A stretch of DNA of 24,000 bases from an uncultured Solirubrobacterales bacterium (GTDB taxonomy: Bacteria > Actinomycetota > Thermoleophilia > Solirubrobacterales > Thermoleophilaceae): contig CAVVQE010000001.1 of assembly GCA_963750365.1 (NCBI GenBank), forward strand, positions 463,866-487,865, in the 5' to 3' direction. A program made the translations under genes and the position numbers. Below are positions 2,765 to 21,714 of the stretch, piece by piece (the stretch's first letter is position 1; every line of letters starts with the position of its first letter). The notes beneath the pieces are model-generated. The model was not told the DNA's origin. It ran no database searches and was given only the letters and a program-made list of their open reading frames with translations.

Positions 2765-3142
2765 ATGTCCGGCACCGACGCCTCGCTCGACGGCGAGGAC
2801 CTCACCGAAGCGATCTCTGCCTCGATGGTCGCCCTCTACGCCGACCACTACGGCCACGACCGCACCACCGGCACGACCTACATCAACGACAACGTCGTGG
2901 TGTGCATCCTCGAGGACATCCTCAGCGCCCACGAGGACACCCAGATCGCCAGCGGCGACGGCGGCGACGTGATCGACGGCCGCGTGGCGTTCCAGACGGG
3001 CATGCAGGACGAGTTCACGAGCGAGATCGAGCGGTTGACCGAGCGCCGCGTGACCGCCTTCATGAGCGCGAACCAGACCACCCCCGGGGTCGCCTGCGAG
3101 CTGTTCTTCCTCGAGGCGCCCACCGGGGCGGGCGAGCGGTAG
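2765..3142 (+). CDS. DUF2294 (MpsC-like) domain protein
   Basis: Start at ATG 2765, in frame within track ORF 2432..3142. The 125-aa protein has ISASMVALYADHYGHDRTTGTTYINDNVVVCILEDILSAHE...FQTGMQDEFTSEIERLTERRVTAFMS, the pattern I recognise for DUF2294. The upstream track extension is Arg/Pro/Ala-rich and non-coding-like. Confidence 0.75.
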   Translation: MSGTDASLDGEDLTEAISASMVALYADHYGHDRTTGTTYINDNVVVCILEDILSAHEDTQIASGDGGDVIDGRVAFQTGMQDEFTSEIERLTERRVTAFMSANQTTPGVACELFFLEAPTGAGER

Positions 3143-3144
3143 CC

Positions 3145-3708
3145 ATGCTCACGCCCAGCGCTGGCGTAGGCGATCGCGAGCTGATGGCTCGCGTCCAGGC
3201 GGACGATCCCGACGCGTTCGAGGCCCTTTTCGACCGGTTCGCGCTCAAGGCCTACCGCGTGGCGTACCTGATCGCGCGTGAGCCCTCACGGACCGAGGAC
3301 GTCATCCAGGACGCGTTCCTGGCCATCTGGCGCACCCGCGCCGCCTACCGCCCCGAGCGTGGCGCCGTGGGCGCATGGATCCTCACCGTGGTCCGCAACC
3401 GGGCGATCGACTCGATGCGCCGCAACGTGCGGCACGATCGCCGGCGCGCGGAGGAGGAGAGGGTCGCGGAGGGTCTGACCCCGTCGCGCAGCGTCGCGGA
3501 GCAGGTGGCCGAGCGCGACGAGGCCAGCCGTCTGCGGGCGGTGCTCTCGCGCCTGCCGGAAGCCCAGCGCGAGGTCATCGCGCTGGCCTACTTCGGTGAG
3601 TTGAGCAGCACCGAGATCGCCGACGAACTGTCGCTACCGCTGGGGACCATCAAGGGCCGCATGCGCCTGGGGCTGGACAAGCTCCGGAGCGACATCACGC
3701 CGGAGTGA
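3145..3708 (+). CDS. ECF-type RNA polymerase sigma-70 family factor
   Basis: ATG 3145 lies 2 nt after the DUF2294 stop (TAG 3140-3142). Region 2 is recognisable (FEALFDRF...VIQDAFLAIWR...GAWILTVVRNRAIDSMRR), as is the region 4 HTH (REVIALAYFGELSSTEIADELSLPLGTIKGRMRLGLDKLR). 187 aa. Confidence 0.9.
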   Translation: MLTPSAGVGDRELMARVQADDPDAFEALFDRFALKAYRVAYLIAREPSRTEDVIQDAFLAIWRTRAAYRPERGAVGAWILTVVRNRAIDSMRRNVRHDRRRAEEERVAEGLTPSRSVAEQVAERDEASRLRAVLSRLPEAQREVIALAYFGELSSTEIADELSLPLGTIKGRMRLGLDKLRSDITPE

Positions 3709-3726
3709 GCCGGGCCGGGACCATGA

Positions 3727-5865
3727 CTAGGACGCCTCGGGCGCGGGCTGCGCCGGGCCTTCGACCGACAGCTGCGGCAGCCGCTTCTCGATCCGGCTGG
3801 GCATCCACCAGCTCCACTTGCCGAACATGTACATCAGCGAGGGGACCAGGATCAGGCGGATGAAGAACGCGTCCACGAACACCGCGCTGGCCAATCCGAG
3901 CCCGAACAGCTTGATCGTGCGCTCGTCGCCGAACATGAACGAGCCGAACACGCTGACCATGATGATCGCGGCGGCCATGACCACCTTGCCGGTCAGGGCG
4001 AGGCCGTTGCGCACGGCGCGGGCCGGGTCGTTGCCCTTCTGCCATTCCTCGTGCATGCGGGTGACCAGGAATACCTCGTAATCCATCGACAACCCGAACA
4101 CGATCGCGAACATGAAGACCGGTAGGAACGCCTCGATCGGCCCGGTGGTCTGCACCCCGATCAGCGAGGCCAGGTGGCCGTCCTGGAACACGAACGTGAT
4201 CACGCCGAGCGCGGCGCCGATCGAGAGCACGTTCATGAACGCGGCTTTGATCGGGATCACCAGCGAGCGGAACACCACCGCCAGCAGGAACAGCGACAGC
4301 CCGACGACCACGGCGATGAACAGCGGCAGCTTGGAGGCCAGCACGCTGTTCAGGTCCTCGGTCGTCGCGGTCGCGCCGCCGACGCTGGCCGTGACGCCGG
4401 TGGCCTGCTCGACCGGCGGGATCACGTCGTTGCGCAGGCGGACAAGCAGGTCCTGCGTCTTGGTGGACTGCGGCTTGGTGCTCGGGAACACCGTCAACGT
4501 CGCGGTGTCCTTGGCCGGGTTCAGCGACGGAGGCGTCACGACCGCGACGCCGTCGCTGCCGCCGATGGCCGCCGACAGCTTGGCCAGCGGGGCGGTGTCG
4601 CCCTTGCTCGGCAGCTCGGTGACCACCAGGAACGGCCCGTTGAAGCCGGGACCGAACCCCTCCGAGAGCTGGTCGTAGGCGATCCGGGTGGTGGTGCCCG
4701 CGGCATCGCTGCCGGAGTCGCTCGAGCCCAGGTTCATGCCCAGCACCGGGAAGGCGATCACGGCCACGATCGCGATCGTGGCCATCGAGATCAGCCGCGG
4801 GCGTCGCTCCAGGAACTTGGCCCACTTGGCCCAGACGCCGGGATGGGCATCCGGGTCGCCCTTGCCCTTGCCGAGCTTGACGCGCGACCCGAACGTGCCA
4901 AGCAGAGCAGGCAGCAGGGTCAGCGAGCCGACCATGGTGAAGAACACCGCCAGCGCCGAGGCGATCGCCGGCCCGTTCAGGAACGAGATGCCCAGCAGCA
5001 GCATGCCCAGCAGCGCGATCACCACGGTCGTGCCGGCGAACAGCACCGAACGGCCCGCGGTATTCAGCGAGGTGATCGTGGCCTCACGGACGTCGCTGCC
5101 GCGACGACGCTCGCCGCGGAAGCGGTTCAGGATCAACAGGGCGTAGTCGATCCCCACGCCGAGGGCGATCATGACCGCCAGCGTCGGCGCGAACGTGGCG
5201 ATGTCGAACACCGCGGAGGCGGCCAGCACGATGGTCATGGCCACGGCGATCGATGCGAACGTGACGATCAGCGGCATGCTCATGGCCGCCAGCGACCCGA
5301 GCACGACCACGAGGACCACGATCGCGACCCCCACGCCGATGACCTCGGTGGCCGACTGCGCCGGCTGCTCGGCGACCTTGATCGCCTGCCCGCCGAGGTT
5401 GACCTGCAGCCCGTCGTTGGCCGCGCCCTTGGCGGTATCGATCACCCGCACGACGTCGGCCTTGTCCAGGTCGCTGGCCTGCTTGTCGAAGCCGACCGTG
5501 GCGTAGCCGATCTGGCCGTTCTTGCTGATCGCGCCCTTGCCCGCAAACGGGTCCTGCACCCCGGCGACGCCGGGTAGCGTGCCCAGCTTCTTGACCAGCG
5601 CCTGAATCTCGGGCTTGTGGGTGCCGTCGGCCAGCGTGCCGTCGTTGGCCTTGAACACCACCTGGCTGGAGTCGCCCGCCTGCTGGGGGAACTTGGTCTT
5701 CAGCAGGTCGGTGGCCTTCTGGGATTCGCTGCCGGGGAGTGAGAAGTTGTCGACGAAGGTGCCGCCCGCGCCGGCCGCCAGGGCGCCAAACCCGACGATC
5801 ATGGCGACCCAAAGGCCGATTACCAGTCGGTGCCGGTCGTGGCACCACTCTCCGATGCGTCGCAT
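3727..5865 (-). CDS. MMPL family (RND superfamily) membrane transporter
   Basis: The long minus ORF has two 6-TM bundles and large extracytoplasmic domains. It contains GVGIDYALLILNRFRGE and GLSMDYEVFLVTRMHEEW motifs and the C-terminal KWSWWMPSRIEKRLP tail. I prefer ATG 5865 (MRRIGEWCHDRHRLVIGLWVAMIV...) over the GTG at 5934. Confidence 0.9.
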   Translation of the reverse strand: MRRIGEWCHDRHRLVIGLWVAMIVGFGALAAGAGGTFVDNFSLPGSESQKATDLLKTKFPQQAGDSSQVVFKANDGTLADGTHKPEIQALVKKLGTLPGVAGVQDPFAGKGAISKNGQIGYATVGFDKQASDLDKADVVRVIDTAKGAANDGLQVNLGGQAIKVAEQPAQSATEVIGVGVAIVVLVVVLGSLAAMSMPLIVTFASIAVAMTIVLAASAVFDIATFAPTLAVMIALGVGIDYALLILNRFRGERRRGSDVREATITSLNTAGRSVLFAGTTVVIALLGMLLLGISFLNGPAIASALAVFFTMVGSLTLLPALLGTFGSRVKLGKGKGDPDAHPGVWAKWAKFLERRPRLISMATIAIVAVIAFPVLGMNLGSSDSGSDAAGTTTRIAYDQLSEGFGPGFNGPFLVVTELPSKGDTAPLAKLSAAIGGSDGVAVVTPPSLNPAKDTATLTVFPSTKPQSTKTQDLLVRLRNDVIPPVEQATGVTASVGGATATTEDLNSVLASKLPLFIAVVVGLSLFLLAVVFRSLVIPIKAAFMNVLSIGAALGVITFVFQDGHLASLIGVQTTGPIEAFLPVFMFAIVFGLSMDYEVFLVTRMHEEWQKGNDPARAVRNGLALTGKVVMAAAIIMVSVFGSFMFGDERTIKLFGLGLASAVFVDAFFIRLILVPSLMYMFGKWSWWMPSRIEKRLPQLSVEGPAQPAPEAS

Positions 5866-5938: not shown

Positions 5939-5950
5939 TGCAAATTTGCA
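5939..5950. promoter_or_regulatory. Perfect 12-bp AT-rich palindrome TGCAAATTTGCA in the MMPL/tetR divergent intergenic region. Candidate TetR operator.
   Basis: It is its own reverse complement and sits in the most AT-rich patch of the window, between MMPL start 5865 and tetR start 5999. The half-site-like TTGCAAG recurs at 5865-5871 and 5946-5952. Confidence 0.45.
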
Positions 5951-5998
5951 AGAACCGCATGATTGCGCTTGTTGCGAAAGGTGCTAGTGTGCAGATCG

Positions 5999-6613
5999 AT
6001 GGGTCTGAGAGAGCGAAAGAAGGAGCGGACGGCGCGAGCAATCGAGGATGCGGCGCTCTACCTGTTCGCCGAACGGGGCTTTCAGGCGACCACGGTCGCC
6101 GACATCGCCGAGGCCGCCGAGGTGGCCCCGCGGACGTTCTTCGCCTACTTCCCGTCGAAGGAGAGCGTGCTGTTCGGCGACTTCGACCAGACCGTCCAGG
6201 CACTGGCCGCGCACCTCGAGCAGCGCGAGAGCGGCCAGAGCACGCTGGACGCGGTGCGTGCGTGGATCGTCGAGATCGTCGAGCGCGACGGACTGGACGA
6301 GGAGCGCGGACGGCGGCTCCGTGAGGTCATCGAGGCCAACGAGCCGCTGCTGACCTACGAGCGCCAGCTCACGATCCGCTTCGAGGCGCTGATCGCCGCG
6401 GCCGTGGCAGAGGATCTGGGCGCCGACCCCCACGACCTGCACCCGCGGCTGATCGCCGCCGCGGCCGCGGCTTCGCTCGCCGTCCTCCGGCCGGACCCCG
6501 ACGCTCCCGCTGCCGAGCCCACGACGGACCTTCTGGCGCCGCTGGACGACGCGCTCGCCTTCCTGAGCGGCGGCATCGAGGCGCTGCGCCGGCGCGGCGC
6601 TCGAGTTGGCTGA
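5999..6613 (+). CDS. TetR/AcrR family transcriptional regulator
   Basis: MGLRERKKERTARAIEDAALYLFAERGFQATTVADIAEAAEVAPRTFFAYFPSKE is a canonical TetR N-terminal HTH. I prefer ATG 5999 to the track start at 5963. It is divergent from the MMPL gene. Confidence 0.9.
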   Translation: MGLRERKKERTARAIEDAALYLFAERGFQATTVADIAEAAEVAPRTFFAYFPSKESVLFGDFDQTVQALAAHLEQRESGQSTLDAVRAWIVEIVERDGLDEERGRRLREVIEANEPLLTYERQLTIRFEALIAAAVAEDLGADPHDLHPRLIAAAAAASLAVLRPDPDAPAAEPTTDLLAPLDDALAFLSGGIEALRRRGARVG

Positions 6614-7502
6614 GGCCCGGACCGTGCCGAGCTCCGCCGAGCGCGTAGCCACCTGGCGGGCGGCCGGTGAGTTCACCGAGGTCCACGGGCACCGGCTTTA
6701 CCTGCAGCAGCGCGAGGGCAGCGGGCCGCTGCTGGTCTTCCTGCACGGCTTCCCCTCCAGCTCCTATGACTGGCGGTCGCTGGTCGACCTGCTGCCCGGC
6801 AGGCGGATGCTGCTGCTGGACTTCCTGGGCTTCGGGCTGTCGGACAAGCCGCGTGATCACCTCTACTCGCTGGCCTGGCAGGCGGACGCCGTGGTGGAGC
6901 TGCTGCGGCGCGCCGATGCGCCGCCGGCGTTCCTGGTCGCGCACGACATGGGCACGTCGGTGGCCACCGAGCTCATGGCCCGTGATCTGCGCGATCAGCT
7001 CGGCGTCGAGCTGACCGGGGCGCTGCTGTTCAACGGCAGCATCCTTCTGGGCCGCGCCAGCCCGACTCCCGGCCAGAAGCTGTTGCGCACCCGGCTCGGG
7101 CCGCTGTTCGCCCGTCTGACCAGCCAGCGCGCCTTCCGGCTGCAGTTCGCGCGCTTGTTCTCGAGCGAGCACCCGCTCTCGCGCGAGGAGGCGGCCGATC
7201 AATGGGCACTGCTCAGCGCGGGCGGCGGGCAGCGGCTGGCGCACCGCACGATCCACTACATGGACGAGCGCGAGCTCCTGACCGAACGCTGGCACGGTGC
7301 GTTCCGCGACTGGCCGGGCGCGCTCTCGCTGGCCTGGGGGCTGCGCGATCCGGTGGCCACCAGCGCGGTGCTCGAAGGCCTGCGCGAGCTGCGCCCGGGT
7401 GTGCCCGTCCGCGAGCTGGCCGATCTGGGCCACTACCCCCAGATCGAGGACCCGCGCCGGATGGCGGACGTGGTCGCCGACGTCGCTAGGTTGACCTCGT
7501 GA
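6606..7502 (+). CDS. Alpha/beta hydrolase, MEST-like / epoxide-hydrolase-like subfamily (Asp nucleophile)
   Basis: Motifs: LVFLHGFPSSSYDW, LDFLGFGLSDKPR, the nucleophile elbow VAHDMGTS (Asp114, codon 6945-6947, in place of GxSxG) and C-terminal GHYPQIEDP. As I recall it, these strings closely resemble MEST (HGFPTSSYDW / LDFLGFGFSDKPR / SHDYG / HYPQLEDP). The start is TTG 6606, which overlaps the tetR stop by 8 nt, or GTG 6624. Confidence 0.85.
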   Translation: MAEARTVPSSAERVATWRAAGEFTEVHGHRLYLQQREGSGPLLVFLHGFPSSSYDWRSLVDLLPGRRMLLLDFLGFGLSDKPRDHLYSLAWQADAVVELLRRADAPPAFLVAHDMGTSVATELMARDLRDQLGVELTGALLFNGSILLGRASPTPGQKLLRTRLGPLFARLTSQRAFRLQFARLFSSEHPLSREEAADQWALLSAGGGQRLAHRTIHYMDERELLTERWHGAFRDWPGALSLAWGLRDPVATSAVLEGLRELRPGVPVRELADLGHYPQIEDPRRMADVVADVARLTS

Positions 7503-8269
7503 CGCCGATCACCAGCGCCGACACGTCGAGCCTGCGGCGCGGGAACCTGATCGTCGGCGGCCTTCACGCGGCGCAGGCAGTGGTGCTGCTGCTGGTGGCC
7601 AGCAGCGCCACGCTGCCGGTCAACGCGAGCTACCTGACGGGTCCGCCGGGCTCCGGCGACTTCGGCGGCCCCGCGAACCTCTTCGACCTGCGCATCGACA
7701 TCGCGATCGCGGTCTTCCTGGGCCTGGCGGCGGTCGATCACCTGGCCGTGGCAGGGCCCGCCCGTGGCTGGTACGAACGCAACGTGGCGCGCGGGATCAA
7801 CCCCGCGCGCTGGTGGGAGTACTCGCTGAGCGCGTCACTGATGATCGTCCTGATCGCGATGCTCTCCGGGATCAGCGAGGCCACCGCGCTGGTCGCGATC
7901 TTCGGCGTGAACGCGGCCATGATCCTCTTCGGACTGGCCATGGAGCGTGTGAACGTGGACCGCGCGGAGCCGGACTGGCGGCCTTTCATCTATGGCAACG
8001 TCGCCGGAGTGGTGCCCTGGTTGGCCATCACGCTTCAGCTCGTGGTCGCGGAATCCGAGGGCGGCGGCGCACCGGGGTTCGTTTACGCCATCTTCTTCTC
8101 GCTGCTGGTGCTGTTCTCCAGCTTCGCCGTGAACATGTGGCTCCAGTACCGCCGGGTCGGGCGGTGGAAGGATCCCGTCTTCGCCGAGAAGGCCTACCTG
8201 GTGCTGAGCCTGGTCTCGAAGAGCGTGCTGGCCTGGCAGGTCTACGCGGGCGCGCTGGCCGGCAGCTAG
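7499..8269 (+). CDS. Heliorhodopsin-family seven-transmembrane retinal-binding protein
   Basis: 256 aa with 7 predicted TM helices. A Lys sits in the middle of TM7 (LSLVSKSVLAWQ, K241, codon 8219-8221), a putative counterion Glu in TM3 (RWWEYSLSAS, E107), and His23/Gln26 in TM1 (GGLHAAQ). There is also a long TM1-TM2 loop (YLTGPPGS...) and FGVNAAMILFG in TM4. These match my recollection of HeR 48C12 (RWVEYSLSSS, LSLVAKSALAWQ, FGVNASMILFG). Arg/Lys cluster at the N-terminus and in loops 2-3, 4-5 and 6-7, which implies an N-in topology inverted relative to type-1 rhodopsins. The GTG start overlaps the hydrolase stop (GTGA at 7499-7502). Confidence 0.85.
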   Translation: MTPITSADTSSLRRGNLIVGGLHAAQAVVLLLVASSATLPVNASYLTGPPGSGDFGGPANLFDLRIDIAIAVFLGLAAVDHLAVAGPARGWYERNVARGINPARWWEYSLSASLMIVLIAMLSGISEATALVAIFGVNAAMILFGLAMERVNVDRAEPDWRPFIYGNVAGVVPWLAITLQLVVAESEGGGAPGFVYAIFFSLLVLFSSFAVNMWLQYRRVGRWKDPVFAEKAYLVLSLVSKSVLAWQVYAGALAGS

Positions 8270-8271
8270 CG

Positions 8272-8844
8272 CTACTCCGGCCCGACCGCCACCCGCAGCT
8301 TGCCGAGGATCGAGCGCACGCGCTCGCCGATCTCGTCCGCGCTCACGCTCAGCACGTCGGCGATCTCGGGAGCCGGGACGCGGTCCATGAGCATCCCGAA
8401 CACCGGCAGCTCACGCTCGGGATCGAGCTTGGCCGCGCTCTGTTGCAGCTGGGCGCCCGAGATCGACGGCAGCACCAGCTCACCGCGCGCCACCAGGCGA
8501 ACGGCGTCGAGCAGCTCGTCCGCGGGCACCCCCTTGCTGGCGACGCCGCTGGCGCCCGCAACGATGGCGGGGATCGCCAGCGAGGCACTGGCATAGGCGG
8601 AGTAGATCATCACCCGGGGCGGCTCGGCACGGCTGGTGATCCGGTGGCAGACCGACAGTCCGTCGTCCGCCGGCAGGTGGTAGTCCACGAGAACGACGTC
8701 CGGGTTGGCGTGCTCGACGTCCGTGACGGCGTCGGCGGCCGCCGCGGATGCGCCCACCGGCACGATCCCCGGCTCGCTGCGGAACACCACGTGGAGGCCG
8801 GCGCGCATGGCCGGGTGGTCGTCGATCAGGTAGACGCGGATCAA
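8272..8844 (-). CDS. NarL/LuxR-family two-component response regulator
   Basis: Receiver domain (RVYLIDDHPAMRAGL...DVVLVDYHLPADDG...SKG) plus a C-terminal LuxR-type HTH (PEIADVLSVSADEIGERVRSILGKLRV). The likely start is TTG 8844, overlapping the kinase stop (TTGA). The track start at 9006 would overlap the kinase by 165 nt. Confidence 0.8.
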   Translation of the reverse strand: MIRVYLIDDHPAMRAGLHVVFRSEPGIVPVGASAAAADAVTDVEHANPDVVLVDYHLPADDGLSVCHRITSRAEPPRVMIYSAYASASLAIPAIVAGASGVASKGVPADELLDAVRLVARGELVLPSISGAQLQQSAAKLDPERELPVFGMLMDRVPAPEIADVLSVSADEIGERVRSILGKLRVAVGPE

Positions 8845-9974
8845 CCCGGGACCCCATTGCCGTTCAGCGGCACCGAAAGCTCCACGCCGGTGCCCACGCC
8901 GCCGAGCCCGTGGCCGAAGTCCAGCCGTCCGCCCAGGCTCGCGACCCGCGCGTCCATCGTCCTCAGGCCCTGTGCGCCGGGCCGCGTCTGGCTGGGCATC
9001 CCGCAACCGTCGTCGGCGACGCTGATGCTCAGCTGCTCGCCGTTCGCATGCAGGGTCACCTCGATGTGGCGGGCCGAGGCGTGGCGCAGGGCGTTGGCGA
9101 TGGCCTCCGACGCCACCCGGTAGGCGTGAACCTCCACGAAGGCGGGCAGGTCACCGACGGTTCCGTTCACCGCCAGCGTGGGGCCGTCGGGCAGGGCAAG
9201 CTCGCTGGCGCGCGTGCGCAGCGCCTGGTCCAGGCTGCGGCCCTGCAGGGGGGCGTTCAGGTCGCTGACGCTGGTCTCCATGTCGGCGGCGGCGCTGGTG
9301 AGCTCGCGCATCGCCTGCGTCATCCAGCCTTGGTCCTCCTCGGGCACGCGGGGGGCCAGCGAGCTGAGCACCAGGTGCGCGGCGTGTATGCGCTGCTTGG
9401 CCGAGTCGTGCAGCTCGATGGCTATCCGGCGCCTCTCGGCCTCCACCGCCAGCCGCGCCGACCGCTCGCGCTCGCGCAACAGCGCGGCGGCGTACGCCAG
9501 CGCCATCACCGTCACCGACGGGATCAGCAGCTGCGTGGCGAAGCTCTCCAGCCGGGCGGTGTCGCGCAGCTCCGGGAAGTCGACGCCCACCAGCACCGCC
9601 ACCGCGAGGTAGGCCGCGGTGAACAAGCCTCCGGTTATCACGGCCGCCCGGTAGCCCAGCGTGACCGCCGGCAACACGAGCGCGGTCACGGCGAAGAGGT
9701 AGAACGGGCTGCGCCACTCGCCGGAGGCCACGACCAGGCCGAGCGCGATCCCGACGTCCACCAGCCACGCGCCCGGGTGCAGGACCAGCCGCGTTGAACG
9801 CGTCGCGGCCAGCACCGAGGCCAGGCCATAGACGGCTCCGATCGCGGCCAGCGAGAGGTCGTCGCTGGTCACCGTGTGCACCAGCAGGAGCGCCACGGCC
9901 AGCGCCGTGGCCCCGAGCCGCGCGGCCACGAAGAGCGCGATCCAACGATCCTCGACCGGCTGCTCGGTTCCCAT
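8841..9974 (-). CDS. Sensor histidine kinase, HisKA_3 (NarX/DesK-like) with a polytopic N-terminal membrane domain and no obvious periplasmic domain
   Basis: H-box RRRIAIELHDSAKQRIHAAHL and HATPase_c motifs (EAIANALRHA, DDGCGMP, GLRTMDARVASLGGRL). The roughly 160-aa N-terminus has about 5 hydrophobic segments joined by short loops. Confidence 0.9.
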   Translation of the reverse strand: MGTEQPVEDRWIALFVAARLGATALAVALLLVHTVTSDDLSLAAIGAVYGLASVLAATRSTRLVLHPGAWLVDVGIALGLVVASGEWRSPFYLFAVTALVLPAVTLGYRAAVITGGLFTAAYLAVAVLVGVDFPELRDTARLESFATQLLIPSVTVMALAYAAALLRERERSARLAVEAERRRIAIELHDSAKQRIHAAHLVLSSLAPRVPEEDQGWMTQAMRELTSAAADMETSVSDLNAPLQGRSLDQALRTRASELALPDGPTLAVNGTVGDLPAFVEVHAYRVASEAIANALRHASARHIEVTLHANGEQLSISVADDGCGMPSQTRPGAQGLRTMDARVASLGGRLDFGHGLGGVGTGVELSVPLNGNGVPG

Positions 9975-10030: not shown

Positions 10031-11341
10031 ATGCTTGCTGCCAGAGCCGTGAGCGACCTCGGAATCCTGGCTGCAGTCCTGTTCAGCTACAGCCTGGTCT
10101 CGCGCCGGCTGGACCGTATGGCAGTCAGCGCGCCGATGGTCTTCGTGGCCGCAGGCATGCTGCTGGGCCCCAGCGCGCTGGACGTGATCGACCTCGAGCT
10201 GACCGGGGAGACCGGCCTGCTGGTGGCAGAGGCGGCGCTGGTGATCGTGCTGTTCGCCGACGCCGCGCGGATCGACCTGCGCGCGCTGCGCGGCAACAGC
10301 AACCTGCCGGCCCGCCTGCTGGGCCTTGGTATGCCGCTGACGATCGGCCTCGGCGTCCTGGCCGGCGCCCTGCTCCTGGAGCAGATCGATTTTTGGGAGG
10401 CCGCGATCATCGCCGCCGTGCTGGCGCCGACCGACGCCGCGCTGGGCCAGGTGGTGGTCTCCAGCGAGCGCGTCCCCCAGCGCATCCGCCAGGCGCTGAA
10501 CGTGGAGAGCGGGCTCAACGACGGGCTCTCGATCCCGTTCCTGTTCCTGTTCGTCGGTCTCGCCGTCTCCGAGGCCGACGTGACCGCCGGCGGCTGGCTC
10601 AGCTTCGCCGCCCAGCAGATCGGGCTCGGCGCGCTGGTCGGGATCGGGCTCGGCCTGGTCGGTGGCTGGCTCTACCAGCGCGCAGTCGATCGGGAGCTCA
10701 TCAACGCCACCTTCAAGCAGCTGGGGCTGGTGGGGCTGGCCATCGGAGCGTGGGCGCTGGCCCAGGAGCTGGGTGGGAACGGCTTCATCGCCGCCTTCAC
10801 GGCCGGCCTGACCACGGGCCGGATAACGCCCACCTGCGGCCAGTCGATCCTGGACTTCACCGACGACGAGGGCCAGCTGCTGAACCTGGCCGTCTTCTTC
10901 ATCTTCGGGGTCAGCGCCATCGGTTTCCTGGACGCGGCCGGCTGGCAGGTGGTGGTGTTCGGGCTCTTGAGCCTGACCGTGATTCGCATGCTGCCGGTGG
11001 CGCTGGCGATGCTGGGGACCGGCCTGCGAAGGAGCTCGGTCGCCTTCATGGCCTGGTTCGGGCCGCGCGGGCTGGCCTCGATCATCCTGGCCCTGGTCGT
11101 GGTAGAGGAGGAACCCCAGCTTCCGGGCCTGGAGATCGTGCTCGCGACGATGACCGTGACCGTGCTTGCCAGCGTCTTCGCCCACGGGATCACGGCACGG
11201 CCGCTCGTCGCCGCCTACGCCCGCCGGCTGGAAGCCACGCAGGGGCCAATGGCCGAGAGCGAGCGGGTGCCCGAGATGCCGATCCGCGGTCAGTCGGCGG
11301 AGTCCGCGTCGGCCGGCCGGTTCGGGTCAGGCACCGGCTAG
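10031..11341 (+). CDS. Cation:proton antiporter (CPA1, Na+/H+ exchanger family)
   Basis: Start at ATG 10031, in frame within track ORF 9794..11341. About 12 TM segments; motifs LAPTDAALG, ESGLNDGLSIPF and FGPRGLASI are typical of Na+/H+ exchangers. The upstream track extension is Arg/Pro-rich and non-coding-like. Confidence 0.85.
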   Translation: MLAARAVSDLGILAAVLFSYSLVSRRLDRMAVSAPMVFVAAGMLLGPSALDVIDLELTGETGLLVAEAALVIVLFADAARIDLRALRGNSNLPARLLGLGMPLTIGLGVLAGALLLEQIDFWEAAIIAAVLAPTDAALGQVVVSSERVPQRIRQALNVESGLNDGLSIPFLFLFVGLAVSEADVTAGGWLSFAAQQIGLGALVGIGLGLVGGWLYQRAVDRELINATFKQLGLVGLAIGAWALAQELGGNGFIAAFTAGLTTGRITPTCGQSILDFTDDEGQLLNLAVFFIFGVSAIGFLDAAGWQVVVFGLLSLTVIRMLPVALAMLGTGLRRSSVAFMAWFGPRGLASIILALVVVEEEPQLPGLEIVLATMTVTVLASVFAHGITARPLVAAYARRLEATQGPMAESERVPEMPIRGQSAESASAGRFGSGTG

Positions 11342-13389: not shown

Positions 13390-14596
13390 GTGAGCGACGA
13401 GTCCACCCGACGGCTGGACGAGGGCGCGCTGCGCGCCCTCGTCCCTCGGGTGCTCGCGGGCCTGGTCCGGCGGGGCGAGGACTTCGATGCCGCCGAGGAC
13501 GCGCTGCAGGAGGCACTGCTGGAGGCGCTGCGGGTGTGGCCCGAACACCCGCCGCTCGACCCGGGCGCGTGGCTGGCCACGGTCGCAACCCGGCGGCTCG
13601 TCGATGCGCGCCGCAGCGAGGCCGCCCGTCACCGCCGCGAGGAGGTGGAGTACGCCGAACCCCCGCAGCCCGCCTCGACCGAGGAGGGCGACGACACCCT
13701 CTTCCTGCTCTTCTGCTGCTGCCACCCCGAGCTCGCGCCCGCCTCCCAGGTGGCGCTGACCCTGCGCGCCGTCGGCGGCCTGACCACGCAGGGAGATCGC
13801 CGACGCCTTCTACGTGCCGGAGGCGACGATGGCGCAGCGGATCAGCCGCGCCAAGCGCACCGTGCGAGGGCGCAGCCTCGACCAGCCCGGCGACCTCGCC
13901 GTAGTCCTGCGCGTGCTCTACCTCGTCTACACGACCGGCCACGCGGGCCGCGTGGACCTGGCCGCCGAGGCGATCCGGCTCGCCCGCCAGCTCACCCTCG
14001 CCACCGAGGAGCCGGAGGCGCGCGGGCTGCTGGCGCTGATGCTGCTCAACCATGCGCGCGCTCCGGCGCGACTGGACTCAGAGGGACGCATCGTCCCGCT
14101 CGACCGCCAGAACCGCGATCTCTGGGACACCCGCGAGATCGCCGAGGGCGTGCGCGTCCTGCAGTCGGCGCTGGCCGCCGAGTGCCCCGGCCGCTACCAG
14201 GCCGAGGCCGCCATCGCCGCCCTGCACGACGACGCCGCGAGCGCCGAGGAGACCGACTGGCCGCAGATCCTGGCCTGGTACGACGACCTCGTCGCCCTGA
14301 CCGACGATCCGGTGCGCCAGGACCCCGCCGCGGTGCTCGGGCGCGCGGTCGCGGTCGGCCACGCCCTCGGCGCCGCCGCCGGGCTGCGCGAGACCGACCG
14401 GCTGCGCGAGGTGCTGGGCGAGCGGCACCGCTGGCACGCCGTCCGCGGCCACCTGCACGAGCTCGGCGGCGACCTCCCTGCCGCCGCCAGCGCGTACGCG
14501 GATGCAGCCCACCGGGCCACCGACGTCGCCGAGCGCGACCACCTGGTCCGGCAGGCCGCCCGCGCGCGGGTCACCGAGCTACCGTCGAGCGCATGA
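13390..14596 (+). pseudogene. Sigma-70 family factor with a long C-terminal helical/TPR-like extension (COG4941 type), interrupted by an apparent +1 frameshift near 13789-13795
   Basis: The N-terminal part (GTG 13390) is recognisably sigma-factor-like through ...LFCCCHPELAPASQVALTLRAVGGLTT. The expected continuation EIADAFYVPEATMAQRISRAKRTV... and the whole C-terminal domain are in the +1 frame (track ORF 13814..14596). That frame has a TGA at 13781-13783, so the switch must occur within 13784-13795 (CCACGCAGGGAG). Removing one G from the GGG at 13791-13793 restores TTQEIADAF. Confidence 0.8.
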
Positions 14597-15030: not shown

Positions 15031-15045
15031 GGCTCGATCGCCTGA

Positions 15046-15119
<74 letters not shown>

Positions 15120-15138
15120 AGTGCGGGGCTACAGGCTA

Positions 15139-15434: not shown

Positions 15435-17363
15435 TCAGTACTCGCCGTCGTTGCGCGCGACCGTCTCGGGCTTTCGCCCGCAGGGGACCGGACTGACGGG
15501 GAGCCCGCTCTCGCCCGTTTCGGGCAGCCGCAGGCGGTAGCTGACCCCGCGCCGCAGGGGAGCGTGGCGGACGAACACCCCGCTCGCCGACGTGGCGAAC
15601 GCCTGCCGCGAATACGAGGCGCGCTTGCGTGCGCGTGCGCTGCTGGCGGTGGCGGCCTGGGTCCATACCGGGGCGGCGCCGACGCGCTGCTCCAGGATCA
15701 CGCGGTGAGCCGCCGACCCGGGCCGGACGTGCCCCCAGATCACGAGCCGGCGCTCGGTCCGGCTGCGTTTGGCGGACCGCCGCTTGCGCCCCTTCTTGGA
15801 CCGGCGCTTTGAGGACCGTCGCTTCGCCGCCGAGCGGCCGCGCACGCGCTTCTGCATCTTGCGGCCGCGGCGGCTCTTCGTGCGTGCTCCGCGCTTGTGC
15901 TTGCCGCTGCGGCGTTTGCCCCGGCGCTTGCCGCGGCGCTTGCGAGCCGGTCGCGCAGGACGGGTGGTCACACAGTCCACGAACAGCGCGAGCTTGAAGC
16001 TGGTGGCGGCCGGTTTGGGCGTTCCGTCCTCGAACAGCAGGCCGCTCTGGTAGTCGGCGTAGGGCCGGGCGCCGCGAGCGGCCTTCTCGGCGCTGACCAC
16101 CCCCAGGTCGCGGAGCAGGAACTGCGGCCAGCTGCGCACGCGCGGGTTCTTGTACGCCAGGTACTCGGCCCAGTTGAGAAAGCGCGCCTGCTGCTCCAGG
16201 CCGTAGGGCTTGTCGGGGTCGGGCGGGTTGGTCTCGTAGCCGAACTCGGTCAGATAGATGTTGGCCAGCCGCGGGCTTATCCGGCCCATGCCCGCGAGCC
16301 TGTCGAGCAGCTTGCTCAGGCGGTCCAGCGCGCCGATGCGGGCGGAGTCGGGGTTGCGGGGGTCCTGGAAGTCCGGGCGGTTGAGCAGCGAGTAGGGATG
16401 GTGGGCAAAGCCGTCGCCCTGGATCGGCCGGTAGCCCGCGCAGCGTGGCGCCGTGAGCGGGCGCAGCCGCTCGTCGACGCAGGCCAGCTCGCGGATGAAC
16501 TTCAGCGGCGGGATGCCGCTGGTGGTCTCCTTGGGGTTCTTGACCCCGAAGCTGGCCAGCCCGCCCACGAGCACCGTGCTGTCCGGCTGGAGCTGCTTGA
16601 TCAGGGGCTCGGATGCCTCGACCATGCGCCTGTACAGGTGGGGTGTGTTGGGCTCGAGCTGGCCGTTCGGTGCACGCGTGTACTGGGGCTGCAGGAAGCC
16701 GGGGTGGTTGGGCTCGTTCCAGATGGTCCACATGCTGACCTTGGGCAGCGGGCCGAGGGCTCCGGCCGGCGCGGGCGGCGGGGGTGCGGGCTGGCCGAGG
16801 GCTATGAGGGCGCCGAGCGGGCCCTCGAGGAGCTGTTGGTCGGGCTCACCGGCCGGCGTGGGCTCGGTATCGGCCACGGGCACGAAGTTGCCCGAGTAGC
16901 GCTTGACCACGGCCTCGGTGAACTGGGCGAAGGCGCCCGGATCGATGTCCCAGCGATGACGGCCGGGCGGGCCCTGCGGGTTGCCCGTGGTGGCCCAGCG
17001 CGGCGCCCAGAAGGCCAAGTCGATCATCACCGTCAGCCCGGCCTTGTTCGCGGCGATGACCGCGCGGTCCAGGCGACGCCAGTTCGCCCGCGGGTAGGCA
17101 TCGGGGTCGGTCAGCGCCAGCGCAGGGCGCTCGATGCTGTCGGCGTTGGGCGCGATGCTCGACCAGCCGGCGTTCAGGCGCACCCGGTCGACACCCAGCG
17201 CGCGCAGGTGCTGCATGCTCTGCGTGACCTGCTCGTCTGAGCGGAACAGCAGCTCGGCGTCGTCCTGCACGATCGTCTCGGGCGCCTCGCGCGCCTGGGC
17301 GGGCGCGGCCACGGCCAGGGACAGCAGGACAGCGGAGGTGAGGCGGAGGGCCAGCTGACGCAT
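15435..17363 (-). CDS. Secreted glycoside-hydrolase-like protein (clan GH-A TIM-barrel signatures) with a Pro-rich insert, a 72-aa polybasic insert and a C-terminal beta-rich domain
   Basis: Sec-type signal peptide MRQLALRLTSAVLLSLAVAAPAQA. Candidate acid/base motif MWTIWNEPNHP and nucleophile motif IYLTEFGYE, about 160 aa apart, as in GH5/GH39-like enzymes. G/C third-position bias holds throughout, including the basic segment. The family assignment is tentative. Confidence 0.6.
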   Translation of the reverse strand: MRQLALRLTSAVLLSLAVAAPAQAREAPETIVQDDAELLFRSDEQVTQSMQHLRALGVDRVRLNAGWSSIAPNADSIERPALALTDPDAYPRANWRRLDRAVIAANKAGLTVMIDLAFWAPRWATTGNPQGPPGRHRWDIDPGAFAQFTEAVVKRYSGNFVPVADTEPTPAGEPDQQLLEGPLGALIALGQPAPPPPAPAGALGPLPKVSMWTIWNEPNHPGFLQPQYTRAPNGQLEPNTPHLYRRMVEASEPLIKQLQPDSTVLVGGLASFGVKNPKETTSGIPPLKFIRELACVDERLRPLTAPRCAGYRPIQGDGFAHHPYSLLNRPDFQDPRNPDSARIGALDRLSKLLDRLAGMGRISPRLANIYLTEFGYETNPPDPDKPYGLEQQARFLNWAEYLAYKNPRVRSWPQFLLRDLGVVSAEKAARGARPYADYQSGLLFEDGTPKPAATSFKLALFVDCVTTRPARPARKRRGKRRGKRRSGKHKRGARTKSRRGRKMQKRVRGRSAAKRRSSKRRSKKGRKRRSAKRSRTERRLVIWGHVRPGSAAHRVILEQRVGAAPVWTQAATASSARARKRASYSRQAFATSASGVFVRHAPLRRGVSYRLRLPETGESGLPVSPVPCGRKPETVARNDGEY

Positions 17364-19139: not shown

Positions 19140-19748
19140 ATGGGCCTGCTGGACGACCACGCCGCCATCCTCTGCGACCTGGACGGCGTCCTGGTGGACT
19201 CGGACGCCGCGATCGAGCGCGGCTACGACCAGTGGGCCGACGGCCACGGCCTGGACCGCGCGCTGGTGCGCTCGCTGTACCCCGGCACACCGGCCCGCCA
19301 GGTGGCCGAACAGGCCGCGCCGTGGCTGGACGCGGACGCCGAGGCCGAGCGCATCGACCGCATCCACCTGGCTCACGGCGACCACGTGCGGGCATTGGCC
19401 GGGGCCGCCGACCTGCTGGACGAGCCGCCCCTGCCGCTGGCCGTGGTGACCTCGTGCAGCCGGCAGCTGGCGGCCGCGCGCTTTCAGGCCTCGGGCCTGA
19501 GCGCTCCCGAGGTGGTCGTGACCGCCGACGACGTGGCGGTGGGAAAGCCCGATCCGGCCGCCTACCTGGCCGCGGCCCGCCGGCTCGGCGCCGGGCCCGG
19601 CGCCTGCATGGTCATCGAGGACGCGCCGGCCGGGGTGGCGGCCGGCAAGGCAGCCGGCATGACGGTGCTGGCGCTGACCACCACCCACGGCGCGGAGGAG
19701 CTGTCCGCGGCCGACCATCTGGCCGCCGACCTGACCGTGCTGGGCTAG
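19140..19748 (+). CDS. HAD-IA family hydrolase (phosphatase / beta-phosphoglucomutase-like)
   Basis: HAD motif I is ILCDLDGVLVDS, motif II VVTS, motif III GKPDP and motif IV VIEDAPAGVAAGKAAGM. Start at ATG 19140, in frame within track ORF 19080..19748. Confidence 0.85.
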   Translation: MGLLDDHAAILCDLDGVLVDSDAAIERGYDQWADGHGLDRALVRSLYPGTPARQVAEQAAPWLDADAEAERIDRIHLAHGDHVRALAGAADLLDEPPLPLAVVTSCSRQLAAARFQASGLSAPEVVVTADDVAVGKPDPAAYLAAARRLGAGPGACMVIEDAPAGVAAGKAAGMTVLALTTTHGAEELSAADHLAADLTVLG

Positions 19749-20683
19749 CCCTCCTGCTCCTTGGCCTCCTGCGCTGCCGCGCGCTTGGCCTCCCGGCGCG
19801 CCCGGCGGCCGCCCGGCATGCGCCCCGCCATGCTGCTCAGCGGGGCGGCGGCGGTGCTCAGCTCCTCCGCCGACTCCTGCAGGCTTGTCACGCTCTGGCT
19901 GAGCGTGTCCAGCGCCGGCTCCAGGCGGCCGAGCTGGCTGCCGATGGACTCCACCTGGTTCTCCACGGCCTGGACGCGACCCGGCAGCTGGGGCAGCCCG
20001 CGGGTGGACTCGGCCAGGCTCTCCAGCGCGCTGGCCACCGTGGCCAGGCGCGTCAGGGAGTCGCCGAGGGCGCCCAGGGTCCGCAGCGTCTCCTCGAGCG
20101 CGCCGAGGCGCTGCAGCGTCACGTCCAGGTCGGCCAGGCGCGAGAGCGTCTCGGACAGGTCACCCAGGTGTGCCACGGGGCCGTCCTCGGCCAGCAGCTG
20201 TTCGATGCTGCCTCCGGGCTCCAGCAGCAGGTGCAGCGTGCCGTCGGGCCTGACCAGCCGGTCGATCGTGCCGTCCACGACAAGCATCTGGTCGATCAGC
20301 CCGCCCTCCACGAACAGGCGCTCCAGCACACCCTGCTCCTCGAGCACGCGGTCCAGCGTTCCGCCCTCGGCGGTCAGACGGTCCAGCGCACCACCTTCGG
20401 CCAGCAGCCGGTCCAAGGCGCCCCCCCTCGCCAGGAGGCGATCCAGCGGACCGCCTTCGGCGAGCAGCCGGTCGGCCACGCCATCCTCGGCCAGCAACCG
20501 GTCAAGCGGGCCGCCGTTGGCCAGGGCGCGGCCCAGCGGCTGGTCGTCGGCGGTGAGCATGGACAGCTGCTCGAGCCGTGCCAGCGGGCCGTCGGGATCG
20601 CCGAGGCGGCTCAGGCCGACCACCGCGTCGGCGGTTGCGGTCGCGGCGCGGAGCGGCAACAGCGCGTACGACATCAGCCCCAT
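19745..20683 (-). CDS. Hypothetical protein built from tandem decapeptide repeats (consensus D-R-L-L-A-E-G-G-x-L) with a helical Leu-periodic C-terminal half and a basic tail
   Basis: The ATG at 20683 lies 11 nt after the oxidoreductase stop (20695). The longer track ORF (to 21034) would overlap that gene by 340 nt. The 312-aa protein has strong G/C third-position bias, and I recognise no family, signal peptide or TM segment. Confidence 0.65.
   Translation of the reverse strand: MGLMSYALLPLRAATATADAVVGLSRLGDPDGPLARLEQLSMLTADDQPLGRALANGGPLDRLLAEDGVADRLLAEGGPLDRLLARGGALDRLLAEGGALDRLTAEGGTLDRVLEEQGVLERLFVEGGLIDQMLVVDGTIDRLVRPDGTLHLLLEPGGSIEQLLAEDGPVAHLGDLSETLSRLADLDVTLQRLGALEETLRTLGALGDSLTRLATVASALESLAESTRGLPQLPGRVQAVENQVESIGSQLGRLEPALDTLSQSVTSLQESAEELSTAAAPLSSMAGRMPGGRRARREAKRAAAQEAKEQEG
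20174..20533 (-). repeat. Twelve tandem 30-nt coding repeats (10-aa units) inside the repeat-protein gene
   Basis: Units, residues 51-170: GRALANGGPL / DRLLAEDGVA / DRLLAEGGPL / DRLLARGGAL / DRLLAEGGAL / DRLTAEGGTL / DRVLEEQGVL / ERLFVEGGLI / DQMLVVDGTI / DRLVRPDGTL / HLLLEPGGSI / EQLLAEDGPV. The DNA copies differ by many synonymous changes. Degenerate units of the same period continue on both sides, roughly 19994-20593. Confidence 0.85.
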
Positions 20684-20694
20684 GAGGGCCGAGC

Positions 20695-21714
20695 CTATCC
20701 GGGCTGCAGCGAAACCACCTGGCCCGTTCGCGCGCTGCGCCGGGCTGCTGCGATCACCCGCACCACCGCGGCCCCCTCGCTGGCGGACACCGGCATCGGC
20801 CCGCCGTCGCGCAGCGCGTCGCGCACGCCCGCGTAGAAGTCGGCGTAGTCGCCGGCCGGGGTGGGGATCAGCTGCTCGCCGCCGGCCTCGGTGACCAGCC
20901 GCAGCGCCGGATCGGGCGCGTCCTCCCCGCGCAGGCGCAGCTCCTGCGGGTCCAGGCCGTGTGACTCCAGCAGGCCGCCCAGGCCGGTCACGCGAAAGCG
21001 CGGGCCGGGCTCGATGGCCACGAGGCTCATCCACAGCTGCACGGTCGGCCCGTCGCCGAAGCCCAGCTGCACGTAGCTGTCGTCGTCAACGCGGGCGCCC
21101 TGGCGGCGGGTGTCCAGCCTGGCGAACACGGTGTCCGGAGCACCGAACAGCACCAGCGCCTGGTCGATCAGGTGGCTGCCGAGGTCCCACAGCAGCCCGC
21201 CGCCGTCGTCATCGGCCGCGGACTCACGCCAGCGCTCGGCCTGGACCGCGGGCCGCCAGCGCTCCCAGCGCGCCTCCAGCCGCAGCACGGGCGCGATCCG
21301 CTCGGCCAGCTCGCGCACGGCCAGGAAGTCGCCGTCCCAGCGGCGGTTGTGGAACACGGCCAGCGCCACGCCCGTCTCGGCGCTGAGCGCCACCAGCCGT
21401 TCGGCGTCCTGCTCGGCCACCGCCAGCGGCTTGTCGACCACCACCGGCAGGCCCGCCCGCAGCGAGCGCTCGGCCAGCTCGGCGTGGGCGCGGTTGGGAG
21501 CGGCCACCACCACCAGGTCGAAGCCGGCGGGGTCGGCCCAGATGGCGTCGGCGCCGTCCAGCACCGCGGCGCCCGGATGGTCGCGCGCCACGGCCGCGCG
21601 CCGGGTCGGGTCGGAGGTGACCACGGCGGCCAGCTCCATGCCCTCGGTGAGGGCGACCAGCGGGGCGTGCAGCCCGGCGCCGGCCGGGCCGTAGCCCACC
21701 AGCGCCGTGCGCAC
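20695..21714 (-). CDS. Gfo/Idh/MocA family NAD(P)-dependent oxidoreductase
   Basis: N-terminal Rossmann motif (V/M)RTALVGYGPAGAGLHAPLV, then AAPNRAHAELAERSLRAGLPVVVDKPLA, FHNRRWDGDF and the C-terminal alpha/beta domain. GTG 21714 is the likely start. In the track it is fused in frame to the permease N-terminus as a 753-aa ORF. Confidence 0.85.
   Translation of the reverse strand: MRTALVGYGPAGAGLHAPLVALTEGMELAAVVTSDPTRRAAVARDHPGAAVLDGADAIWADPAGFDLVVVAAPNRAHAELAERSLRAGLPVVVDKPLAVAEQDAERLVALSAETGVALAVFHNRRWDGDFLAVRELAERIAPVLRLEARWERWRPAVQAERWRESAADDDGGGLLWDLGSHLIDQALVLFGAPDTVFARLDTRRQGARVDDDSYVQLGFGDGPTVQLWMSLVAIEPGPRFRVTGLGGLLESHGLDPQELRLRGEDAPDPALRLVTEAGGEQLIPTPAGDYADFYAGVRDALRDGGPMPVSASEGAAVVRVIAAARRSARTGQVVSLQPG

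Follow-up and report, generated by a model that had tools for sequence, protein, structure and literature searches.

The heliorhodopsin (HeR) gene identified in this study is located at positions 7499–8269 on the forward strand of the window, which is the whole stretch of 24,000 nucleotides that was analyzed. It starts with GTG and encodes a polypeptide of 256 amino acid residues that has seven transmembrane (TM) helices and a β-hairpin in the AB loop. Upstream of it on the same strand are the genes for a TetR-family regulator with an MftR-like C-terminal domain (5999–6613) and an α/β hydrolase (6606–7502). Downstream of it on the reverse strand are the genes for a NarL/LuxR-type response regulator (8272–8844) and a HisKA_3 histidine kinase (8841–9974). 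The start of the HeR gene is unambiguous, because an in-frame stop codon is found at 7487–7489 and no further start codon is present upstream. The GC contents at the three codon positions were 0.66, 0.47, and 0.93, respectively, which are typical for the true genes of this window (71% GC), and the codon-usage log-likelihood was comparable to those of the adjoining genes. This open reading frame (ORF) is a real coding gene and not a chance frame, and the identical protein has already been deposited in NCBI/ENA. The first-pass annotation of this DNA had reported the same ORF. The strings that it quoted, SLRRGN, ARGWYERNVARGINPAR, RWWEYSLSAS, ERVNVDRAEPDWR, AESEGGG, QYRRVGRWKD, and LSLVSKSVLAWQ, were all found in the ORF at the residue numbers given, with K241 in LSLVSKSVLAWQ, E107 in RWWEYSLSAS, and H23 and Q26 likewise present; every detail that was checked was correct. 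Finally, no terminator was found 3′ of the HeR gene in a promoter/terminator scan, and a tRNA was the sole match in an Rfam scan.

The membership of this protein in the HeR family, also claimed in the first-pass annotation, was confirmed by two profile models. The Pfam model PF18761 (Heliorhodopsin) matched over its full length (positions 1–242 of 242) with 307.5 bits against a cutoff of 26.7 (E = 7.6e-92), and the NCBIfam equivalog model NF038020 (HeR) matched with 291.1 bits against a cutoff of 100. Phmmer searches of the PDB sequences recovered HeR 48C12 with an E-value of 6e-58 and TaHeR, the second reference protein named in that annotation, with an E-value of 2e-51. The alignment to 48C12 was in register (residues 5–253 to residues 5–253). 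Thus, K241, E107, H23, and Q26 are homologous positions in the two proteins, as their shared residue numbers had implied. Assignment to the type-1 rhodopsins was rejected, as the model PF01036 (Bac_rhodopsin) gave 11.7 bits against a cutoff of 24.6 (E = 0.18). These results also bear on whether this HeR is a light-driven ion transporter, like the type-1 pumps or the viral V2HeR3. The overall 7TM retinal fold is common to all of them, and a viral HeR transports protons (PMC9448325). However, the sequence studied here groups with the bacterial HeRs of the 48C12 type, with 42% identity and the same set of residues, and falls well below the cutoff of the type-1 model. 48C12 itself was reportedly found by Pushkarev and colleagues in 2018 to be without ion transport. 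Ion transport by this HeR is highly improbable.

The residues of functional importance in 48C12 were conserved in this HeR. K241, which aligned to the Schiff-base K241 of 48C12, lies within a predicted helix of residues 226–255. E107 and S237 aligned to E107 and S237 of 48C12, of which the former is the helix C Glu counterion and the latter is the Ser at the position of Asp212 of bR (PMC7049168). Among the structurally important residues of 48C12 listed by Kovalev et al. (2020; PMC7049168), 26 were kept in addition to K241. They are N16, H23, Q26, H81 (80 in 48C12), Y92, N101, R104, W105, E107, Y108, S111, S113, M115, N138, M141, I142, E149, P173, W174, F206, Q216, E230, S237, S242, W246, and Q247. 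The His pair (H23 and H81) and the Arg104-Glu149-Glu230 polar network, which in HeRs are found around the Schiff-base cavity, are included, together with N16, Y92, N101, and Y108. Searches identified 4012 HeR homologs at E ≤ 1e-10. The key residues were invariant in the closest 119 of them, and K241 was found in 119/119.

The AlphaFold (AF2) model of this HeR (pLDDT 89.4, pTM 0.86) contained seven helices and a β-hairpin, whose predicted strands in the AB loop comprise residues 38–46 and 55–65. The top Foldseek matches of this model were 6su3, 6su4, 7u55, and 6is6, with TM-scores of 0.88–0.91 and rmsd of about 2 Å, whereas the TM-scores against type-1 rhodopsins were about 0.55–0.69 at 8–17% identity. 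Thus, the predicted fold is that of a seven-TM protein with an AB-loop β-hairpin that can be superposed on the solved HeR structures. 48C12 (PDB 6su3, 6su4, 6uh3, and 9ljj) was 42% identical to this HeR, and its structure superposed on the AF2 model with a TM-score of 0.90 and rmsd of 1.8–2.0 Å, including the β-hairpin. The numbering of the two proteins is almost identical, except for one-residue indels by which His80 and Trp173 of 48C12 correspond to H81 and W174. TaHeR (PDB 6is6, 7u55, and 7clj), whose host is a Thermoplasmatales archaeon, was more distant than 48C12. Its identity to this HeR was 38–39%, its TM-scores were 0.89–0.91, and its residue numbers differ from those of this HeR by 3 to 6 (residues 13–253 of the query to residues 19–256 of the chain).

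Different from 48C12, this HeR and its clade carry the changes S76A (here A77), S112A, Q213M, and Y226P at positions that are conserved in the 48C12 subfamily, so the photochemical details may differ accordingly. In addition, three differences from 48C12 are private to this HeR, in which C166 is replaced by N167, N207 by S207, and A240 by S240. These are fenestration and color-tuning positions. N167 and S207 line the lateral fenestration, and S240 adjoins the Schiff-base lysine. In 48C12, A240S shifted the absorption to the blue by 5 nm (PMC7807009).

This HeR has 13 Lys and Arg residues in its N-terminus and in loops BC, DE, and FG, while loops AB, CD, and EF and the C-terminus contain none; R65, located where helix B ends on the outer side, was left out of these loop counts. 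By the positive-inside rule, this distribution predicts that the N-terminus is cytoplasmic, i.e., the inverted topology. Both the clustering of Arg and Lys residues and the inverted topology had been put forward in the first-pass annotation; the clustering was confirmed, and the topology is predicted here as well.

The host of this HeR is probably a soil actinobacterium of the Solirubrobacterales. The 80 best genomic relatives of the HeR were from metagenome-assembled genomes (MAGs) of Solirubrobacterales/Thermoleophilia or other Actinomycetota, with the sole exception of one MAG labeled as delta proteobacterium, and the orthologs of the neighboring hydrolase were named Solirubrobacteraceae, Conexibacter, and Baekduia. 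HeRs were reported to be restricted to monoderms (PMC8612252), and, judging from these relatives, the host of this HeR would be a monoderm. Our literature search found no paper that ties HeR specifically to Solirubrobacterales, and HeRs from MAGs are noted in general terms by one soil-crust study. Public MAGs of Solirubrobacterales contain HeRs of the same clade, for instance that of CAVUFN010000019.1, which was 77% identical to the HeR of this study. Their key residues are the same, but their gene neighborhoods differ, and neither the hydrolase nor the two-component system of the window was a recurrent neighbor.

The TetR, α/β-hydrolase, and HeR genes probably form an operon, in which the HeR gene is the last. 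The hydrolase matched the Pfam families Abhydrolase_1 and Abhydrolase_6 and is of the epoxide-hydrolase/haloalkane-dehalogenase-like type. It contains the motifs HGFPSS and AHDMG, of which the Asp in the latter is the putative nucleophile. The public annotation places its start at 6624 instead, which gives 292 amino acid residues. The TGA stop codon of the hydrolase gene overlaps the GTG start codon of the HeR gene by 4 nucleotides (GTGA at 7499–7502), which argues for their co-expression. The hydrolase-HeR junction was reproduced at 99.94% identity on a 1.7 kb contig of L088, an independent assembly of run ERR11523665. The start of the TetR gene, probably the first gene of the operon, is uncertain and is either the TTG at 5963 or 5999. 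A perfect 12-bp palindrome, TGCAAATTTGCA, is found at 5941–5952 in the intergenic region between the divergent MMPL and TetR genes, where it overlaps a promoter-like minus-strand site, and it is a candidate TetR operator.

An α/β hydrolase is among the ten recurrent operon neighbors of HeRs (PMC11109279). Similar to the HeR operons described by Cho et al. (2024), the HeR gene of this study shares its strand with an enzyme gene at a spacing inside the operon range of −20 to +30 bp, and the cytoplasmic loops of its product likewise abound in Arg/Lys and Trp. Different from the α/β-hydrolase group of Cho et al. (2024), which co-occurs with DUF2177, the operon of this study is headed by a TetR gene, and Pfam scans of the genes called in the 24 kb window did not find DUF2177. 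Moreover, the pairing of HeR with this hydrolase did not recur among the relatives. Tblastn searches of the 80 related HeR loci with 16 and then 27 proteins of the window found neither an ortholog of the neighboring hydrolase nor of TetR. α/β hydrolases of any kind accounted for 2 of the 150 immediate (±1) neighbors in the related loci and were not listed at ±2. In view of this lack of conservation, the case for the hydrolase as the partner of HeR is weak. Three orthologs of the hydrolase from other Solirubrobacterales genomes (70–76% identity) were adjoined by neither HeR nor TetR. The possibility that HeR was added to a pre-existing TetR-hydrolase operon was thus rejected, and the whole arrangement is specific to this lineage.

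The response regulator gene is convergent with the HeR gene, and the stop codons of the two genes are 2 nucleotides apart. The regulator comprises about 190 amino acid residues when translated from the TTG at 8844, and its start overlaps the stop codon of the kinase gene (TTGA). The kinase comprises 377 amino acid residues and is of the intramembrane type, as its first 166 residues contain about 6 hydrophobic segments and no extracytoplasmic domain. HtrII reads sensory rhodopsin II by helix-helix contacts. By a similar mechanism, this HeR could pass light information to the adjacent kinase through contacts between membrane helices, after which the NarL-type regulator would alter transcription. 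The direct adjacency of the kinase/regulator pair and a sensor part that consists of membrane helices only fit such a role, as does the reported statistical enrichment, across phyla, of genes for histidine kinases and response regulators at distances of up to 10 kb from HeRs (Bulzu et al., 2021; PMC8612252). However, the genes are convergent with HeR and are not co-transcribed with it, and homologs of the kinase and the regulator were each found in only 1 of the 80 related loci. HisKA, HATPase, and Response_reg were absent from the 25 Pfam families listed as the most frequent for 294 neighbors of the related HeR genes (150 at ±1 and 144 at ±2). Furthermore, the best NCBIfam similarities of the pair were to LiaS, MadS/MadR, and NarX/NarL, i.e., envelope-stress and nitrate-type systems, all of which were far below the cutoff. 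Signaling from this HeR to the kinase is, therefore, quite unlikely.

The gene neighborhoods of the related HeRs varied substantially. The window and the 80 related loci together contributed 440 neighbor genes, which fell into 255 clusters; the largest spanned only 15 loci, and no dominant partner emerged. In the tblastn searches, the one gene that recurred at a conserved distance was that of an FMN reductase, which lies about 6 kb upstream of HeR and was common to five to six relatives. Conserved synteny was thus rejected as evidence for a partner. Such turnover of gene order would be expected if this HeR acted on its own as a photoreceptor or harvested light through a carotenoid antenna, with accidental neighbors and with a partner or role whose genes lie elsewhere. 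In support of an antenna function, a preprint from 2025 proposes that a conserved lateral fenestration of HeRs binds exogenous xanthophylls (10.1101/2025.11.27.691015), and this HeR contains F163, G170, F206, and A210 of that fenestration. However, two of the positions that line the fenestration are altered (N167 and S207), so binding of an antenna should not be presumed, and the 4-nucleotide overlap with the hydrolase gene, which argues for co-expression, speaks against accidental neighbors. A stand-alone or antenna role is a real possibility that falls short of an even chance. Pfam scans found no crt/blh genes for retinal synthesis within the 24 kb window.

Taken with the operon geometry, the features described above make it very probable that this protein is a canonical retinal-binding HeR with a cytoplasmic N-terminus that functions as a non-pumping light switch and modulates a partner protein, for which the hydrolase is the first candidate. 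All-trans retinal would be bound to K241 as a protonated Schiff base that E107, as the single counterion, stabilizes together with S237. The H23/H81 pair and the polar network of R104-E149-E230 would lie toward the cytoplasm. Judging from the characterized bacterial HeRs, this HeR most likely pumps no ions and may act as a switch with a slow photocycle; a partner would be bound by its positively charged cytoplasmic loops and modulated depending on light. The charges of cytoplasmic loops mediate the binding of HeRs to glutamine synthetase, photolyase, and an ABC transporter (PMC11109279, PMC9529153, PMC9769723), as in the regulatory pairs AbHeR-glutamine synthetase, TfHeR-photolyase, and OcHeR-OmrDE. 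In the HeR of this study, R89/R94/R98, D159/W160, and R218/R219/R222/W223/K224 could serve this purpose. The hydrolase comes first as the candidate partner because its gene would be co-transcribed, and probably translationally coupled, with the HeR gene behind the TetR regulator.

The physiology of HeRs is only partly understood, and their characterized partners include the glutamine synthetase, photolyase, and ABC transporter mentioned above. Hence, every clear operon supplies a partner that can be tested, which in this soil Solirubrobacterales genome is an epoxide-hydrolase/dehalogenase-like α/β hydrolase under probable TetR control. It could also be imagined that HeR was recruited in this lineage as the light input of a small membrane module with either the hydrolase or the kinase, and that N167, S207, and S240 adapt the handling of chromophore or carotenoid. 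If true, this would reveal a new class of HeR effectors or, for the first time, a pair of HeR and kinase whose interface is defined, but such recruitment is unlikely. The HeR gene is a genuine, intact, and ordinary addition to a well-described family. Its family, fold, residues, and topology as well as both categories of its neighbors have already been published, and the relatives do not share the pairing. The first-pass annotation had considered the genomic context informative, which was an overestimate. As the hydrolase and the two-component system are not conserved next to HeR in the relatives, they tell little new about HeR function, and this HeR is one more data point without a new principle.

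The survey of the related HeR loci is a modest by-product of this analysis. The recurrent neighbors in these loci included fasciclin, SDR, SRPBCC, MerR-B12, TerC, and photolyase-related genes. Across the 80 loci, the turnover of neighborhoods was extreme, and the MerR-B12 neighbor that recurred was CarH/LitR-like.

The open reading frame at 7499–8269 (+) comprises 256 codons and starts with GTG, and an in-frame TAG at 7487–7489 leaves the GTG at 7499 as its sole possible upstream start. The GC content of the window is about 71%. Given its GC contents at the three codon positions (0.66/0.47/0.93) and its codon-usage log-likelihood under a model trained on long open reading frames, this frame is a real gene. 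The first-pass annotation had proposed that its product was a heliorhodopsin (HeR), and every peptide string it quoted was found in the translation, at the residue number given. The Pfam Heliorhodopsin model PF18761 matched the product over its full length (1–242 of 242; E-value 7.6e-92; 307.5 bits, cutoff 26.7), and the NCBIfam equivalog "heliorhodopsin HeR" scored 291 bits (cutoff 100). An identity as type-1 rhodopsin was rejected, as the Bac_rhodopsin model scored 11.7 bits versus a cutoff of 24.6. The top matches among PDB sequences were the 48C12 entries 6su3, 6uh3, and 9ljj (E ~6e-58), followed by TaHeR of a Thermoplasmatales archaeon (6is6, 7clj; E ~2e-51) and the eukaryotic HeR 9vfc. 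Thus, the profile and the alignments to 48C12 and TaHeR both supported the family assignment. Moreover, residues 5–253 were paired with residues 5–253 of the 48C12 chain, so the shared numbering with 48C12 noted in the first-pass annotation is genuine; two compensating one-residue indels produce a +1 offset only in stretches 53–86 and 154–187. The finding is real and its first reading is correct. HeR belongs to an already known family, and its genomic context is idiosyncratic.

The AlphaFold2 model of HeR, built from 24 homologues, had a mean pLDDT of 89.4, a pTM of 0.86, seven long helices and, in the AB loop, two strands (38–46 and 55–65) forming the hallmark HeR hairpin. When the model was compared with the PDB by Foldseek, the top ten matches were all heliorhodopsins (TM 0.88–0.91, rmsd 1.8–2.2 Å, 38–42% identity), and type-1 rhodopsins ranked behind them (TM ~0.55–0.69). 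The N-terminus and loops BC, DE, and FG contained 2, 4, 2, and 5 Lys and Arg residues, respectively, or 13 in total, versus none in loops AB, CD, and EF and the C-terminus; the sole basic residue on that opposite side was R65, at the outward-facing end of helix B. By the positive-inside rule, this distribution predicts an inverted orientation, in agreement with the cytoplasmic N-terminus predicted previously.

HeR was aligned with its 119 closest database proteins and 48C12, and residue roles were taken from work on 48C12 (PMC7049168). Residues kept with 48C12 (48C12 numbering in brackets where different) were N16, H23, Q26, F73(72), H81(80), Y92, N101, R104, W105, E107, Y108, S111, S113, M115, N138, M141, I142, E149, P173(172), W174(173), S201, F206, A210, Q216, E230, S237, K241, S242, W246, and Q247. 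Different from 48C12, HeR and all 119 relatives shared S76A, S112A, Q213M, and Y226P, which are clade traits; Q213M is a frequent variant (PMC7049168). Other differences were rare or private: N167 in place of Cys166 (Asn in 0 and Cys in 95% of the 119 relatives), S207 in place of Asn207 (Ser in 7, Asn in 90%), S240 in place of Ala240 (Ser in 1, Ala in 99%), and likewise P158. Cys166 and Asn207 line the lateral fenestration, at which carotenoids have been proposed to bind (bioRxiv 10.1101/2025.11.27.691015). Residue 240 adjoins the Schiff-base lysine and is a known color-tuning site, at which A240S of 48C12 is reported to cause a 5 nm blue shift (PMC7807009). These differences are minor variation within the family and no departure from heliorhodopsins.

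The identical protein was already present in NCBI/ENA with a precomputed PF18761 match, and a search at E ≤ 1e-10 yielded 4012 homologues. When one genome per species was scanned, 215 relatives were identified, of which the best 80 were nearly all from Solirubrobacterales/Thermoleophilia MAGs, with a top identity of 77%. Orthologues of the adjacent alpha/beta hydrolase carried the names Solirubrobacteraceae, Conexibacter, and Baekduia. Thus, the host is a monoderm actinobacterium, which fits the reported limitation of HeRs to monoderms (PMC8612252).

HeR follows genes for a TetR regulator (5999–6613, +) and the alpha/beta hydrolase (6606–7502, +). The hydrolase stop and the HeR start overlap in GTGA, and TetR and the hydrolase overlap or are separated by 10 nt, depending on the start chosen. 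An independent assembly of run ERR11523665 reproduced 6158–7836 at 99.94% identity, so the junction is not an assembly artefact. Between TetR and the divergent MMPL transporter gene (3730–5865, −), a perfect 12-bp palindrome, TGCAAATTTGCA, at 5941–5952 overlaps a minus-strand, sigma-70-like promoter match; it is a candidate TetR operator. The hydrolase reached no NCBIfam equivalog cutoff; it resembled soluble epoxide hydrolases and haloalkane dehalogenases most closely, and it has an AHDMG motif whose Asp may be the nucleophile. Downstream and convergent with HeR are a NarL-type response regulator (8272–8844, −) and a HisKA_3 kinase (8841–9974, −). The kinase lacks an external domain, and its first 166 residues include about six hydrophobic segments. 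It is translationally coupled to the regulator through a TTGA overlap at 8841–8844. The stops of the regulator and HeR are 2 nt apart, and no terminator-like hairpin was found between them. Other genes encode an NADPH-dependent FMN reductase (164–805, −), 1-Cys peroxiredoxin (888–1544, −), ZIP transporter (1696–2388, +), an MpsC-like protein (2765–3139, +), and a cation/proton antiporter (10031–11338, +), followed by unrelated genes together with a tRNA-Arg. Genes for carotenoids or retinal were not found among those of the 24-kb window.

The context of HeR is not conserved in its relatives. When the 80 related loci, with 10 kb on each side, were searched by tblastn with the window proteins, no hydrolase or TetR homologues were found, and homologues of the kinase, regulator, and antiporter were found once each and of MMPL twice. 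Only FMN reductase recurred, with 61–73% identity in five loci (L023, L040, L043, L055, and L070, at about 3400–4900, −), where, as in the window, it lies ~6 kb upstream of HeR in the same orientation. A sixth (L029:5492–6130, +; 51% identity) lies ~4 kb upstream in the opposite orientation. FMN reductase alone remains of a shared synteny; the intervening genes differ. The 440 neighbors within ±3 genes, called with a home-made codon-usage gene caller, fell into 255 similarity clusters, the biggest of which spanned 15 loci. Pfam families at ±1 and ±2 included fasciclin, SDR/epimerase, acyltransferase, TerC, MFS, and TrpB-like, as well as photolyase-related, SRPBCC, MerR with B12-binding, RDD, and DUF2254. 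Among the three closest HeR contigs, that of an 80% identical relative had ABC ATPases as neighbors, and that of a 77% identical relative had a transposase remnant beside HeR and two-component systems further off. In the third, of a 75% identical relative (L083:5869–8774), an upstream NAD synthetase gene overlaps the HeR start by 4 nt, as in the published NAD+ synthetase operon group, and both an unrelated alpha/beta hydrolase gene and one for a PAS-SpoIIE phosphatase lie downstream.

Cho et al. (2024; PMC11109279) sorted HeR operons into ten neighbor groups, including alpha/beta hydrolase, NAD+ synthetase, MerR, SDR, TerC, photolyase, and ABC transporter, and Bulzu et al. (2021; PMC8612252) found histidine kinases, response regulators, and redox enzymes enriched near HeRs. 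Thus, the context in the window falls into already described categories. Partners were shown to be bound through Arg residues of the cytoplasmic loops (Cho et al., 2024), and those loops of HeR carry Arg, Trp, and Asp residues of the same kind. By analogy, HeR is very probably a retinal-binding, N-in, non-pumping photoreceptor whose cytoplasmic face would modulate a partner. As to this partner, the co-translated hydrolase is a weak candidate: alpha/beta hydrolases accounted for 2 of the 150 flanking neighbors, and, in other genomes, three orthologous hydrolase genes adjoined neither TetR nor HeR. That the convergent kinase is the partner is improbable; it belongs to a class enriched near HeRs, and no two-component families were among the most frequent Pfam families listed for the ±1 and ±2 neighbors. 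The remaining, larger share of the probability falls to an unlinked partner or to a stand-alone or antenna role of HeR.

In addition, genes whose products join a MerR HTH to B12-binding domains, as light-responsive regulators of the CarH/LitR architecture do, were found within ±3 genes of HeR in 11 of the 80 Solirubrobacterales loci (e.g., L014:7814–8674, −; L083:16181–16774, −). They are the most recurrent regulatory neighbor, and the window contains none. Elsewhere in the window, a 642-aa frame and two frames of ~310–340 aa at 15438–17363 (−) and 19748–21714 (−) had no Pfam match at E ≤ 0.001 and good coding statistics. The window has a single tRNA-Arg (anticodon ACG; 15044–15120, −), its only Rfam match. 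Finally, a SigK-like ECF sigma factor (3145–3705, +) lies directly 3′ of the MpsC-domain gene, and a second sigma-like protein with DUF6596 (13394–14593) adjoins a YCII-domain gene.
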